Shown piece after piece: positions 2,983-12,058 of a stretch of DNA of 13,294 nucleotides. Below the pieces are notes generated by a model. It had not been told where the DNA came from and ran no database searches. It was given only the letters and a program-made list of their open reading frames with translations. This DNA is from a virus. Each line of letters begins with the position of its first letter. Positions within the stretch are counted from its first letter, which is position 1. A program made the position numbers and the translations under genes. The DNA is taken from the UHGV virus genome UHGV-0121640. One strand, written 5' to 3'.

Positions 2983-3934
2983 TGGCCAGAAGTTGCGTAA
3001 CCGCATCTTATTACTGTCACAGCCTACACGCCCAAGCGGCTATTTCTACGATACACACCATAAACTGGCCAAGCGTCCTGGTAACCCAGATGGCGTTTAT
3101 ACGGCGATCACGCTTAACAGTGAGGAATCACCGCTGGTAACGCCAGAATTTATCAAAATGAAGCTGGCGGAGTACGGCGGGCGTGATAACCCTATGTACA
3201 TGATTAAGGTACGCGGCCTATTCCCTAAATCACAGGACGGATTCCTTCTTGGACGTGATGAGGTTGAACGTGCGACGCGGCGGAAAGTCAAGATTGCCAA
3301 AGGATGGGGCTGGCTTGCATGTGTGGACGTTGCTGGTGGTACAGGACGGGATAAGTCCGTTATCAATATCATGATGGTGTCCGGCCAGCGAAATAAACGC
3401 CGTGTAATCAACTATCGAATGCTGGAATACACAGACGTTACAGAAACGCAGCTTGCCGCCAAAATTTTCGCAGAATGTAATCCTGAGCGATTCCCCAATA
3501 TCACCATAGCGATAGACGGCGATGGCCTGGGTAAAGCAACGGCGGATCTGATGTACGAGTATTATGGTATTACCGTACAGCGCATACGCTGGGGTAAAAA
3601 GATGCATAGCCGTGAAGATAAGAGCCTGTACTTTGATAAGCGTGCTTATGCCAATGTTCAAGCCGCAGAGGCCGTAAAATCTGGTCGTATGAGACTGGAT
3701 AAGGGTAATGAAACTATTGAGGAAGCGTCGAAAATCCCTGTAGGGATTAACTCCGCAGGTCAATGGCGGGTGATGACTAAGGAAGACATGAAGAAAAAGC
3801 TCAACCTGCACTCACCAGACCATTGGGATACATATTGTTTCGCTATGCTGGCGGATTATGTTCCCCAGGATGAGGTGCTAAGCGTCGAAGACGAAGCGCA
3901 GGTTGATGAAGCTCTGGCATGGCTTAATGAATAA
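2972..3934 (+). CDS. Terminase large subunit-like protein, C-terminal RNase H-fold nuclease half only (about 320 aa); no Walker A/B ATPase motifs; start uncertain (ATG 2972 or 2975)
   Basis: Motifs LLLSQP (ATPase motif III-like), [41 protein letters not shown] resemble acidic catalytic motifs of terminase nuclease domains. The upstream 2693-2971 extension in the track looks non-coding (overlaps 2128 ORF in another frame). Confidence 0.5.
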
Positions 3935-3937
3935 ATA

Positions 3938-3954
3938 CTTGCTCTAATAAATTG
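3938..3954 (+). promoter_or_regulatory. C1 operator-like site CTTGCTCTAATAAATTG (15/17), overlapping a possible promoter (-35 TTGTGA 3952-3957, -10 TACATT 3975-3980)
   Basis: Direct sequence match; position analogous to the operator controlling the immI promoter in P1 (recalled). Confidence 0.5.
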
Positions 3955-4085
3955 TGATTTTTGACTGCCGATGTTACATTGAACCTGACATCTTGCGCCT
4001 TGAGGCATTTTCGGTTTATGCTTATCAGGCACCTCATTAAAACGGGTGCCGGGATTGAGACCCCGGATAATGCAAAAGGCGACAC

Positions 4086-4109
4086 AGACGCCAAAAGCGT
4101 CTTTTTTTT
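4086..4109 (+). terminator. Rho-independent terminator: stem AGACGC / GCGTCT, loop CAAAA, followed by T8
   Basis: Hairpin plus U-run read directly at 4086-4109. Confidence 0.6.
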
Positions 4110-4159
4110 GTGTCATGCCATCGCACAGCCATACGTAGCGTTTAGCTCAGAGATCAATG

Positions 4160-4238
4160 GTAGTGCTGGCTGGGCTGCCGAAAGGCAGGCCGGTTCCCTT
4201 TTGCGCCGGTAGTCTCAACCCAGTCAGTGCTACCGCCA
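4160..4238 (+). ncRNA. Candidate c4-like antisense RNA: about 77-nt three-way-junction (tRNA-like) structure; boundaries approximate
   Basis: 13-bp closing stem 4162-4174 / 4219-4231 (3 G-U), internal hairpins CTGCC-GAAA-GGCAG (4175-4188) and 4190-4209, single-stranded GTCTCAA (4212-4218) complementary to TTGAGAC at 4055-4061 and 4241-4253; GGCAGGCC complementary with one bulge to GGCTGCC just after the downstream SD. By analogy to P1 c4 (RNase P-processed antisense RNA). Confidence 0.3.
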
Positions 4239-4294
4239 TTGAGATTGAGACCTCACGCGGTAGCTCCTTAAATTAGCAAAAGGAGGCTGCCATT

Positions 4295-4516
4295 GTGGCT
4301 ACTATCCCTACCCCTGCTCATCCTGAATTTATCTGGCGCTTTTACTCCTGCCAAAAACGTCACTATCACTTCGTTATTGCACCGACAGAAGATGAGGCAC
4401 GTTCTCAGCTTCCTGACGCCCCATGTATTTTCTCTGCCCGTTTTTCCACTGATTCACGCAATTCTCTCAGTTACTGGTGCCTCCCTGTTAACGCTTCTGC
4501 TCAGGAGGGACTATGA
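4295..4516 (+). CDS. 73-aa small protein, GTG start, translationally coupled to the antirepressor (ATGA overlap); icd-like position in an immI-type operon
   Basis: Strong SD AAAGGAGG (4279-4286) 8 nt before GTG 4295; stop TGA 4514-4516 overlaps ATG 4513. Size matches recalled P1 Icd (73 aa); sequence identity not verified. Confidence 0.5.
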   Translation: MATIPTPAHPEFIWRFYSCQKRHYHFVIAPTEDEARSQLPDAPCIFSARFSTDSRNSLSYWCLPVNASAQEGL

Positions 4517-5625
4517 GAACATCGTTAGTTACCCGTGAAGAGATGATCGAGGCAATTGAACAGCACACTGCCTGTATCAGTACCAGGGATATACCTGGCG
4601 TTATTGCCAACTACTTCATGATCACCAAACAACTTTACCGGAGAAAGGACAAACACGCGGTTCACCGCATTCTGCTAACCGATATCCGAGAATACCTGCT
4701 CGAACAGGGTCATCTGAATTACGCAACCGTCGCAGCCGAAGCACGCAAGGAGGCACACAGAATGAAAGCAACTAACGTTAAATCAGAAAAAATTTATGCA
4801 CCTTCAGTTCAGGAATCGGAACTGGTGGTTGTTCAGAATCAGCCGGATGAAATTCCCGTTCTGGAATGGCAGGGAGTACGTGTCGTGACAACCGAAACTC
4901 TTGCTAGAGGGTATGGGGTCGATGAAGCCAATATTCGCAACAATTTGTCTCGCAACCTTGACCGCTTTGAAGAAGGTAAGCATTACTTTCTTCTAACTGG
5001 TTTAAAATTAAGAGAATTTAAGAACAGAGTAACTGGAAGTTACTCTGTTGGTAAGAACGCCAGAAGCCTTACACTCTGGACAGAGCGCGGCGCTGCACGC
5101 ATGTCTAAGATCGTGGACACAAATGAAGCATGGGCATTCTTTGAAAAACTGGAAGACAGCTACTTCCGACAAAAAGAACAGCAACCGGTTGCAATCCCCC
5201 AAACATTACCAGAAGCCCTACGCCTGGCTGCCGAACTGGCTGAACAAAAGCAGCTTCTGGAACAGAAAGCCCACCAGCTAAATCAGCAGCTGGTGGCCGC
5301 CGCTCCTAAGGTCGATTTTGCCGACCGGGTATCAGTAGCTAAAGGGATCCTGATTGGGAATTTTGCAAAGGTTGTTGGACTTAAGCAAAACGCGCTGTTT
5401 GCCTGGTTACGGGAGAACGGCATCCTGATAGCGTCCGGTGGACGTAAAAATGTGCCGTTCCAGCAGTACATCAACGCGGGGTATTTCACGGTGAAAGAAG
5501 TGGTGCTGGATGATGAAAATGGCTACCAGATACGGCTGACGCCCCAATTAACGGGTAAAGGCCAGCAGTGGTTGACGCGTAAACTGCTCGATGCTGGCTT
5601 GTTAAAACCGGTGGCGGCTGAATAA
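4513..5625 (+). CDS. ant: Phage antirepressor, N-terminal ORF6N-type and C-terminal KilAC-type domains (370 aa); nested in-frame internal start at 4762 (287 aa) with its own SD, Ant1/Ant2-like
   Basis: ORF6N-like stretch LEWQGVRVVTTETLARGYGVDEANIRNNLSRNLDRFEEGKHYFLLTGLKLREF; KilAC-like stretch VSVAKGILIGNFAKVVGLKQNALFAWLRENGIL...QQYINAGYF; SD AAGGAGG (4747-4753) before ATG 4762. Sizes fit recalled P1 Ant1/Ant2 (42/32 kDa). Confidence 0.75.
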   Translation: MRTSLVTREEMIEAIEQHTACISTRDIPGVIANYFMITKQLYRRKDKHAVHRILLTDIREYLLEQGHLNYATVAAEARKEAHRMKATNVKSEKIYAPSVQESELVVVQNQPDEIPVLEWQGVRVVTTETLARGYGVDEANIRNNLSRNLDRFEEGKHYFLLTGLKLREFKNRVTGSYSVGKNARSLTLWTERGAARMSKIVDTNEAWAFFEKLEDSYFRQKEQQPVAIPQTLPEALRLAAELAEQKQLLEQKAHQLNQQLVAAAPKVDFADRVSVAKGILIGNFAKVVGLKQNALFAWLRENGILIASGGRKNVPFQQYINAGYFTVKEVVLDDENGYQIRLTPQLTGKGQQWLTRKLLDAGLLKPVAAE

Positions 5626-5632
5626 TGGAAGA

Positions 5633-5654
5633 ATGCCCGGTTGATGCCGGGCAT
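5633..5654. terminator. Hairpin ATGCCCGG-ttgatg-CCGGGCAT between convergent ant and c1 3' ends; possible bidirectional terminator
   Basis: 8-bp perfect stem read directly; flanks only moderately T-rich on both strands. Confidence 0.4.
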
Positions 5655-5657
5655 AAT

Positions 5658-6509
5658 TTATTGCGCGCTTTCGGGGTTGTCGTTTACTGGCTGCCCCTTC
5701 TTGGTTTTACGGCTGCGCGTAACTGATGCGGCTGACTTAACCTTTTTCTCTTCGCGAGTGATGGCAATTTGTTTTTTTACATTTTCAATATCTGCCAGGC
5801 GATATATTTTTGCTTGCGGCCAGCGGTCGCAGATGATCGGTTCTATGGAGTCATAAAGGCTAAATTTTGCTTTTTCGAATTCACCGTTGATGATAATTCC
5901 ATCACGGAGAGTTTCATCGCAGATAAACACGCCACACAGTGGCACATGGTAACTCACTGATTTACCATCATTGTAGTTAGGGCTACTGGAAATGTAGTGG
6001 ACGCGCAGCATTGTTTCGCTAAAGCCGTGTACGCGCATACGGAATTTTTCATCCTCCGGGTACTGCTTCATTAGCTCTTTTGTTGCTTCCAGGTTCTCTA
6101 TGTATTTCGCACTGTGCTCATTGATCCCCGCGCTTTTCTGGATGCGAATGTCCTTATCAATCAGATGAATAATGCGGCCAGCGGTCATGTTGACGCTGTT
6201 CACAGCTTCTGTCTGATAAGTCGTAACCTTACGCACACCGCGAAGGATGTTAGGCACTGGATATAAAATAGTCTTTGGGATATTGAGGTCTGGGTACTGT
6301 TCCAGTTCCCGCGCCATTAAAGTCCATTTATCAATTTCAGCCTGAATGCTGTCAGTTTCTTTGAACGGTAGAACGACAACCGGGCGTACAGGACGACCGT
6401 CGCTGGCTGTATCAACGTGTTGGGCGCGTGCAACAGCTTTTTTTAGAAAGAGATCCCTGAAGCTGACGAACTCCTGGTACAGTTGTTCGCCGTAGACATA
6501 ATTTATCAT
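5658..6509 (-). CDS. c1: C1 repressor of lysis (primary immunity repressor, immC), 283 aa
   Basis: Translation MINYVYGEQLYQEFVSFRDLFLKKAVARAQHVD...NDNPESAQ matches P1 C1 as recalled; strong SD (GGAGGAGG on minus strand) 5 nt before ATG. Confidence 0.93.
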   Translation of the reverse strand: MINYVYGEQLYQEFVSFRDLFLKKAVARAQHVDTASDGRPVRPVVVLPFKETDSIQAEIDKWTLMARELEQYPDLNIPKTILYPVPNILRGVRKVTTYQTEAVNSVNMTAGRIIHLIDKDIRIQKSAGINEHSAKYIENLEATKELMKQYPEDEKFRMRVHGFSETMLRVHYISSSPNYNDGKSVSYHVPLCGVFICDETLRDGIIINGEFEKAKFSLYDSIEPIICDRWPQAKIYRLADIENVKKQIAITREEKKVKSAASVTRSRKTKKGQPVNDNPESAQ

Positions 6510-10753: not shown

Positions 10754-12058
10754 ATGAGCGAGTATATAGAAATTGCCTATGCAGCAGCTACACATAGGCT
10801 GTGCTTTCTTACAGGCACTGGATTTTCAAAGGCTGTTTCTGATGATAAAGCCCCAAGTTGGCAATCTTTATTGGAGCAACTGTGCGGTTTATTGAAGGAT
10901 GGTGACTCACTCAAAGAGGAATTATTTCCTGATGGAAAAGCAAAAGACCTTAGCCTTGAAGAGGCTGCTCAGGTTATTGCACTAAAATTTATACTTTCGG
11001 GGAAAAATATTTACCAGGAGATTGAGAAAATCATAGCCTCAATCGAACTTGATCCATCAATTGAATATATTCAAGACTTTTTCAAAGAAAACACATTTAA
11101 AGTAATTACGACAAATTATGACAAGTTAGCAGAAAAACTGGCTGGAGAGAATCGAACGTGTACAATCACCCCCGGCCTGCCAATTCCAAAATATAATTGT
11201 GAGGTTAAAGTCTACCATGTTCACGGCTCTATAGACTCCCCATCAGATATGGTTGTTACTAGCGAGGATTATTTCAGATTTATAAATGGTAATTCTTACT
11301 TTTCAAATAAACTAAGCACAGTTCTACATGAAAACACTATTGTTATTCTTGGCTATTCTCTAAGTGACGCGAACCTCAAGGCGATTATAAATGAATATAA
11401 GGTATTTTCACGGGACAACGTAATGTCCTCCAATATTTTCCTTATTTCCCGAGGGAAACTATTGCAACCTATTAAAGATTACTATTTTTCCTGCTTTGGG
11501 ATTAGGGTTATAGATAAAACAGAGGTGTCTGATTTCTTTAGAAAACTTAACAAGAAAATTCCAGAAGCAAAAAAAATAAAAGACAAATTGAGGCACTCAA
11601 TCAAATCGGTAATAAAAAACGGAAGAGAGTATAAAATAGAGTTCTTGAAGTTAGAGGATTCTTTTTATCATATCATTTCCTCCATTTCATCATCTGGATA
11701 TAGCTGGAATGATGAAAAGGTATTAAATGTTTTTTGTGATATAATAGATAAAAAAATAGATCTTACTAAAGAGTCTGGCGCATGGGAGCAGTATGAACAC
11801 CTGGCAAAATGGCTTATTTATTTCGGTAGTTTATTTGAAGTAAAAGGAACCAACTTTGAGAAAAAATACATACATGCGGTTGAACACTCAATGACTTATA
11901 TGAATAAACCTTACGAAACAGGCTACTCATGGCGAGCATATCTAGCCTGGAAAACAAAATGGCCTTCACTGACAGCATCTAACCGCTCTCTTATTAAGAG
12001 TAAGATGGAAGAAATCCCGCTACAACAGATTCACGATATTATATCTAAGTTTATATAG
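10754..12058 (+). CDS. SIR2-family (sirtuin-like, DHS-like NAD-binding fold) protein, 434 aa: N-terminal predicted NADase domain + unassigned C-terminal domain of about 180 aa; candidate defense effector
   Basis: Motif series FLTGTGFS, TTNYDKLAEK, YHVHGS, VILGYSLSDANL in the order and spacing seen in ThsA/DSR-type SIR2 domains; SD GGAG 7 nt before ATG; gene visibly AT-rich versus flanks. Confidence 0.8.
   Translation: MSEYIEIAYAAATHRLCFLTGTGFSKAVSDDKAPSWQSLLEQLCGLLKDGDSLKEELFPDGKAKDLSLEEAAQVIALKFILSGKNIYQEIEKIIASIELDPSIEYIQDFFKENTFKVITTNYDKLAEKLAGENRTCTITPGLPIPKYNCEVKVYHVHGSIDSPSDMVVTSEDYFRFINGNSYFSNKLSTVLHENTIVILGYSLSDANLKAIINEYKVFSRDNVMSSNIFLISRGKLLQPIKDYYFSCFGIRVIDKTEVSDFFRKLNKKIPEAKKIKDKLRHSIKSVIKNGREYKIEFLKLEDSFYHIISSISSSGYSWNDEKVLNVFCDIIDKKIDLTKESGAWEQYEHLAKWLIYFGSLFEVKGTNFEKKYIHAVEHSMTYMNKPYETGYSWRAYLAWKTKWPSLTASNRSLIKSKMEEIPLQQIHDIISKFI

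Follow-up and report, generated by a model that had tools for sequence, protein, structure and literature searches.

In the textbook picture, drawn from one laboratory phage, the immunity of phage P1 is divided among three separate loci, immC, immI and immT. The antirepressor operon immI lies at 48.1-49.7 kb on the P1 map, far from the repressor gene c1 at 93.2 kb, where pacB and c1 are convergent and adjacent, separated by a spacer of 24 bp. In a 13,294-nucleotide stretch of UHGV virus genome UHGV-0121640 (hereafter the window), which is a 13.3-kb segment of a P1-like (Punavirus) phage-plasmid, an operon that looks like immI is found directly beside c1. Is this the immI operon of the element moved to a new site, an additional copy, or a switch of another kind?

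A preliminary description, made from the letters of the window, had read positions 3938-5625 as an immI-type operon. It consisted of a C1 operator-like site, a structured leader resembling an antisense RNA and a 73-amino-acid (aa) open reading frame (ORF) with a GTG start and a strong Shine-Dalgarno sequence, overlapping (ATGA) a 370-aa ORF6N+KilAC antirepressor with a strong internal start at 4762. The operon was placed tail-to-tail with c1, with about 30 bp between the stops, at a site that in P1 is far from immI. Each of these elements, and the P1 map given there, proved correct, and the immI identity is now backed by homology of the proteins, by matches to Rfam families, by alignment with the immI annotated in P1 and by the co-variation of the c4 antisense RNA with its targets. 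We conclude with considerable confidence that positions 3935-5657 hold a second immunity module of immI type in a P1-like phage-plasmid, one that is complete and probably functional.

Alignment to the P1 pac-c1 interval delimits the module to the base. Homology to P1, as seen by BLAST, runs through the pacB stop codon, whose final base is 3934, and is found again from the c1 stop codon (5658) on; the module puts 1,723 bp in place of the 24-bp P1 spacer, exactly from stop codon to stop codon. The convergent ant and c1 genes are 32 bp apart, and the product of c1 is the presumed target of the module's Ant, as well as the protein presumed to bind its operator.

The module has the same parts as P1/P7 immI in the same order: an operator over the first promoter, a c4 fold with two recognition elements (a' and b') that have targets both upstream and downstream, a b2 target that covers the ribosome-binding site of icd, an Icd of 73 aa, an ant gene coupled through ATGA and a nested Ant2 start (Table 1). 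The leader is strongly structured (z-score of -5.2 vs. shuffles for the folding of 4029-4300) and matches two Rfam families, isrK and C4. The arrangement of c4 with a1/b1 upstream and a2/b2 downstream is that of the P1 annotation. P1's own immI leader matches C4, c4-a1b1 and, below threshold at 35 bits, isrK; on this sequence evidence, the IsrK-like segment is the counterpart of the a1/b1 segment of the P1 leader. Mature c4 is predicted at about 4159-4237 (~79 nt), by homology to the 77-nt c4 RNA of P1. Sites resembling the C1 operator with three mismatches or fewer occur seven times in the window (vs. 0.09 expected from shuffles). The remaining ones lie at the positions of annotated P1 operators near lpa, c1/coi and cre, and two more are found between cre and ref.

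Table 1. Features of the pacB/c1 module and the adjoining c1 gene, in window coordinates.
Feature	Position	Strand	Basis and remarks
C1 operator CTTGCTCTAATAAATTG, homologue of P1 Oc4/Op51	3938-3954	+	2 mismatches (15/17 matches) to consensus ATTGCTCTAATAAATTT; aligned with annotated P1 Oc4
Candidate C1-controlled promoter, homologue of P1 P2c4/P51a	3952-3980	+	By alignment to P1; -35 TTGTGA (3952-3957) overlaps operator; -10 TACATT (3975-3980) after TG
Candidate second, operator-free promoter, homologue of P1 P1c4/P51b	3993-4028	+	By alignment to P1; weak hexamers
IsrK-like leader RNA	4029-4110	+	Rfam isrK (RF01394) at 4029-4107, 59 bits vs. gathering score 50
Decoy site a1 TTGAGAC	4055-4061	+	Complementary to c4 a'
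Decoy site b1 GCAAAAGG	4072-4079	+	Complementary to c4 b'
Intrinsic terminator of IsrK-like leader	Stem 4086-4102, then eight T	+	Terminator scan
c4 antisense RNA gene	4153-4240	+	Rfam C4 (RF01695), full model, 75 bits vs. gathering score 45
c4 recognition element b' CCUUUUGC	4197-4204	+	In hairpin loop
c4 recognition element a' GUCUCAA	4212-4218	+	In single-stranded stretch ahead of closing stem
a2 target TTGAGAC	4245-4251	+	7/7 pairs with a'
b2 target GCAAAAGG	4276-4283	+	8/8 pairs with b'; position as annotated P1 b2; overlaps icd ribosome-binding AAGGAGG (4280-4286)
icd-like gene, 73 aa, GTG start	4295-4516	+	Ribosome-binding AAGGAGG at 4280-4286, eight bases upstream; NCBIfam Icd-like family
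ant1-like antirepressor gene, 370 aa	4513-5625	+	Pfam ORF6N (116-200) and KilAC/ANT (258-359; ANT 108.7 bits)
ant2-like in-frame internal product	4762-5625	+	ATG (Met84) behind own AAGGAGG; residue and ribosome-binding sequence same as annotated P1 ant2 start
G+C-rich hairpin between convergent ant and c1 stops	5633-5654	.	Terminator scan: 9 pairs, AATTTATT tail
c1 repressor gene	5658-6509	-	DNA 96% identical to P1 c1-coi from c1 stop codon on; annotated C1 in relatives

At the protein level, the window Icd is 81% identical to P1 Icd and the window Ant 57% identical to P1 Ant1. The start codon of icd is GTG here and ATG in RCS47, at a fixed position. Its stop overlaps the start of ant (ATGA, 4513-4516) as in P1, an arrangement expected to couple their translation. 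Ant is a mosaic: its first 100 residues are 59% identical to P1 Ant1 and residues 226-370, with the KilAC domain, 86%, vs. 15% for residues 101-225, which carry an ORF6N domain that is absent from P1 Ant1.

The evidence that the RNA part of the module is under selection came from a set of 82 loci containing close relatives of the window Icd (IMG/VR and GTDB genomes), plus P1, RCS47, JL22, 673R5 and pHNTH9F11-2. Twelve a'/b' combinations were found among 90 related loci, each with matching a1, b1, a2 and b2 in a direct duplex search; the sole exception was one locus in which the upstream a1/b1 stretch was mismatched and a2 and b2 were matched. In RCS47, b' differs from that of the window by two bases and both b1 and b2 are changed to match, while 673R5 has a wholly different a'/b' pair. 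Since a joint MAFFT alignment with P1-type leaders put a2 out of register, pairs were counted in the 13 distinct IsrK-type leaders only, and co-variation across types was read from the direct duplex search. All 42 proposed pairs (27 within c4, 7 between a' and a2, and 8 between b' and b2) form in 13/13 of these leaders, and 16 of them show compensatory changes (9 within c4, 4/7 for a'-a2 and 3/8 for b'-b2). Sliding the partners by 1-3 columns lowered pairing to 25-49%. As the c4 elements and their targets co-vary, these sequence comparisons provide strong evidence that the antisense interaction is functional and that the RNA switch is under selection in this module type.

Two loci in the set call for comment. 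The search of genome contigs with Icd yielded three loci only, and a 3.8-kb contig labeled as part of a Bacillota metagenome-assembled genome (L010, JAFAFU010000035.1) bears this enterobacterial module with an Icd 95% identical to that of the window; this label is probably a result of binning contamination. Another locus (L069, IMGVR_UViG_2609459791_000005) has no operator, IsrK or c4, and shows unrelated, coding-looking sequence up to just before the b2/icd ribosome-binding site. Its icd-ant genes would be left without antisense control.

Would the module's switch interfere with that of a canonical immI in the same cell? The closest complete relative of the window, pHNTH9F11-2 (NZ_CP054193.1, 98.2% identity), one of many E. 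coli plasmids that match it at 97-99%, holds two modules: a canonical icd-ant adjoining kilA-repL, and a pacB/c1 module with the specificity of the window. The canonical c4 of this plasmid is of P7 type (a' CUGCUAA, b' CACAAUC). Against P7-type targets, 4+3 of the 7+8 pairs form with the c4 of the window, and against those of P1 5+5, compared to 6+6 between P1 and P7, the classical pair shown experimentally to be heteroimmune. Since the window c4 thus pairs less well with P7-type targets than P1 and P7 do with each other, the window switch and the canonical immI of its relatives should be independent in vivo, without cross-talk.

Four points weigh against the existence of a complete and functional second module. 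First, both leader promoters were assigned solely by alignment to P1, and a generic consensus promoter scan of 3900-5720 called neither. For the second promoter, TTGAGG (4000-4005) could be combined with TATCAG (4023-4028), or TTGCGC (3993-3998) with TATGCT (4017-4022), the latter with a predicted transcript start near 4029; its -10 is poor. Second, since Ant departs from P1 Ant1 in its central third, which is unrelated (15% identity) and carries ORF6N instead, its partner or mode of action could differ. Third, the canonical immI site lies beyond the 13-kb window. Lastly, in this particular element the switch may sit in a defective prophage, where it would be of little consequence.

The third point leaves room for the element's only c4-icd-ant operon having been relocated from the sim/kilA region to the pacB/c1 spacer, and some P1-like plasmids, such as pJIE250-3, do lack the canonical immI region (PMC6906374). 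We consider this quite unlikely. The closest complete relative keeps the canonical immI alongside the pacB/c1 module, indicating that the latter is an additional copy rather than a rearrangement. Similarly, at least 17 of 19 large P1-like IMG/VR contigs (≥80 kb; examples are L012, L104, L139, L187 and L209) with such a module hold another c4 module or more besides. The totals for these 17, which are minimum values, range from two to five, with at least five on IMGVR_UViG_2703718869_000013, and among the c4 modules listed for the 19 contigs the same a'/b' combination never occurs twice on one contig. The leader and c4 are moreover about 95% identical to the immI leader of phage D6 and not P1-like, and Ant is a mosaic, both of which point to recombination rather than to transposition of a resident copy. 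The preliminary description had left the choice between a rearranged relative and a distinct lineage; the distinct lineage is supported, with 385 junctions of this kind in PLSDB, and the rearrangement is not supported, given that both copies are present in the closest relative.

Where, then, did the additional module come from? The immI region of D6 has the same succession of isrK-type leader, c4, icd and ant, and window positions 4063-4391 (leader, c4 and start of icd) are 94.8% identical to it. In contrast, the Ant of D6 is an unrelated protein of Rha/Roi/KilA type (6-18% identical by segment) and the D6 module adjoins ref and pmgF, not c1. Because the leader, c4 and icd start resemble D6 so closely while the D6 Ant is unrelated and the window Ant is itself a mosaic, the module is, as judged from these alignments, a recombinant of known parts. 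It differs from P1/P7 immI in belonging to this D6/IsrK-like lineage, with a stronger leader terminator, in its a'/b' specificity, in the ORF6N central third of Ant, and in where it lies, namely in the pacB/c1 interval and not, as in P1, between sim and kilA-repL. The latter location belongs to P1 itself, not to the operon type. Nor are module type and site strictly linked: IsrK-type leaders occur at the canonical site upstream of kilA-repL in two loci, with a window-type Ant in one (L037) and a P1-type Ant1 in the other (L056), and two further loci (L011 and L045) have a P1-type Ant1 at the pacB/c1 site, which points to exchange between the two sites.

The kinship of the leader also raises the question of what Ant acts upon. 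In the isrK-orf45-anrP region of the Salmonella prophage Gifsy-1, an IsrK-family leader with its own terminator is followed by a processed c4/CI-like RNA, STnc1160; the read-through mRNA encodes a short upstream ORF translationally coupled to the antirepressor, and the short form of IsrK lifts translational repression (Hershko-Shalev et al. 2016, PMC4825925). Action of the short form in trans on the read-through mRNA and Hfq binding have been described for Gifsy-1 only (PMC4825925). The module could be a switch of the IsrK/AnrP kind, with an Ant directed mainly at repressors from other prophages in the same cell or from competing P1-like elements rather than at the element's own C1. The leader's isrK score is above that of the P1 leader (59 vs. 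35 bits), the ORF6N domain has no equivalent in P1 Ant1 and the same leader drives an unrelated Rha/Roi-type Ant in D6, all of which fit this idea. It nevertheless appears unlikely: the C1 operator is placed as P1 Op51, Ant is 59% identical to P1 Ant1 over its first 100 residues and 86% over its last 145, with the Ant2 start kept, and the module is nearly confined to P1-like plasmids (in E. coli genomes, plasmids account for 1,107 of the 1,134 places where it occurs). Gifsy-1 has a 45-aa ORF overlapping the RNA region and not a separate 73-aa icd; it lacks a C1 operator, and its AnrP targets the repressor of Gifsy-1.

A third relative of the RNA switch is the CI immunity system of P4 (CI with seqA/seqC), in which a processed small RNA likewise has targets upstream and downstream in its own transcript. 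SeqA has been named a structural homologue of IsrK, and STnc1160 has been compared with CI RNA (PMC4825925). Unlike the module, P4 CI prematurely terminates transcription of replication genes, and P4 has neither icd/ant nor a C1 operator (PMC4825925).

For the module as a second immI operon acting on C1, we propose the following scheme. C1 bound to the operator would keep the upstream promoter off, whereas the operator-free second promoter, with its weak hexamers, would provide a constitutive leader transcript. By analogy with P1 and Gifsy-1, most of these transcripts would end at the terminator (4086-4110), yielding a short IsrK-like RNA with the a1/b1 decoys, and those reading through would give rise, after processing, to a c4 of about 79 nt, as in P1 and as in the IsrK/STnc1160 pair. 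RNase P is the c4-processing enzyme in P1. The pairing of a' with a2 and of b' with b2 would occlude the icd ribosome-binding site, and a block of icd translation would in turn prevent synthesis of Ant1 and Ant2 through the ATGA overlap. Icd and Ant1/Ant2 would be made whenever target RNA exceeds c4, i.e. upon infection of a cell lacking the cognate c4, upon loss of C1, or when the leader titrates c4; in light of the Gifsy-1 data, the short leader may serve as a sponge for c4. Ant would then inactivate C1 and push the element to lytic expression, as suggested by the P1 annotation and PMC8546580. The interdependence of c4, icd and ant and the Ant1/Ant2/C1 complex are taken from that annotation and from the earlier literature as cited in PMC8546580, and the read-through and activation logic of IsrK from PMC4825925. 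Between the convergent ant and c1 stops, the G+C-rich hairpin is a candidate two-way terminator, with a putative function on the minus strand.

The window's element carries two deletions with respect to both P1 and RCS47, each with microhomology of 3-4 bp at the junction. Through the first (877 bp, junction near 2360), lpa has lost its 3' part and pacA its 5' part, the late pac promoter and the pac cleavage site are gone, and what is left reads in frame as an Lpa'-'PacA fusion ORF (2128-2982); the second (532 bp, junction near 3001), close to the pacB start, causes a frameshift. Neither is shared by any of the top matches in PLSDB or among E. coli genomes. Because these deletions hit lpa, the pac site, pacA and pacB, the element has probably lost the ability to activate late genes and to package DNA, whatever its immunity switches do. 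It might then be asked whether the module is simply a decaying, non-functional duplicate in a defective plasmid prophage, the more so as variants exist with a split ant or c1 (vB_EcoM-673R5) or without c4 (L069). We regard this as very improbable, since neither ORF of the module is disrupted and both retain their ribosome-binding sequences and the coupling overlap, all RNA pairs persist in the relatives, where compensatory changes are seen, the icd start varies between GTG and ATG without changing position, and hundreds of plasmids carry the module at 87-99% identity. A complete and probably functional second module remains the reading that we prefer.

The implication of novelty in the preliminary description has not survived: the arrangement is already known. 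The order pacB-[icd]-ant-c1 occurs in the reference genome RCS47 (NC_042128, annotated pacB-ant-c1), JL22 and vB_EcoM-673R5, with the same insertion in pTZ20_1P, and Venturini et al. (2019) mention 'two short hypothetical orfs and ... ant ... inserted ... between pacB and c1' (PMC6906374). JL22 has the same module at the same site with 98.2% identity over the full length, and RCS47 with 94.6% identity over 91%. Among about 705 PLSDB records that match the region of the c1 3' end, 385 have the ant/c1 junction of the window and 314 the direct pacB/c1 junction of P1, and at least 80% of the module is present in 302 of 5,426 complete E. coli genomes. As more than half of the sequenced P1-like plasmids carry the module at pacB/c1, the arrangement is the ordinary, majority state. 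In the openly searchable literature (the RCS47 and D6 genome papers lying outside it), we found no explicit account of a full second immI operon, or of classes of c4 specificity, for plasmids of the P1 kind beyond the one sentence of PMC6906374. What we add to the record is that the published two hypothetical ORFs plus ant amount to an entire second immI operon, which has an operator of its own, a leader of IsrK type and a c4 of distinct specificity.

Annotation of the module is incomplete in existing records. The RNA genes are unannotated in the RCS47, JL22, 673R5 and pTZ20_1P records, as is icd in some of them. One of the two RNA genes is instead overlaid by a 39-aa 'ash family protein' (WP_071527722.1; 4157-4276, plus strand), called in relatives by the Prokaryotic Genome Annotation Pipeline (PGAP) and lying almost wholly on c4. 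An NCBIfam search gave no match for this ORF, which is probably spurious, an RNA gene read as protein. Split ORFs were also noted: ant is split in vB_EcoM-673R5 (L003) and in two other loci (L060 and L088), and in 673R5 c1 and pacA are split too, as a result of either sequencing frameshifts or decay.

The genes of the window follow the order phd, doc, pdcA and pdcB, the damaged lpa/pacA/pacB region, the module, then c1, coi, cre, c8, ref and mat, and finally a gene for a SIR2-domain protein. The last, at the position of P1 res/mod (10754-12058, plus strand), encodes a 434-aa SIR2_2-domain protein that matches the PADLOC SIR2 defense families PDC-S25, ThsA and LmuA. The stretch of relatives that matches the window holds RelA/SpoT, TnpB, YaaC or type III restriction-modification genes, and the res/mod slot may be a hotspot for defense genes.

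No new mechanism is needed to account for the module, as every part of it has a characterized homologue. A broader possibility, which we put forward tentatively and consider rather doubtful, is that natural P1-like phage-plasmids usually carry two or more c4-icd-ant switches (at least five having been seen) with differing a'/b' elements, making up a combinatorial RNA 'immunity code'. In such a code the c1-side copy would be an independent second lock, and antisense read-through from it into c1 could reinforce exit from lysogeny; if true, laboratory P1 with its one immI would represent a minority state. The data indicate that the sequenced relatives of P1 mostly carry an extra antirepressor switch that abuts c1 and has an RNA specificity of its own, which bears on the mutual exclusion and induction of P1-like plasmids, many of which carry resistance genes.

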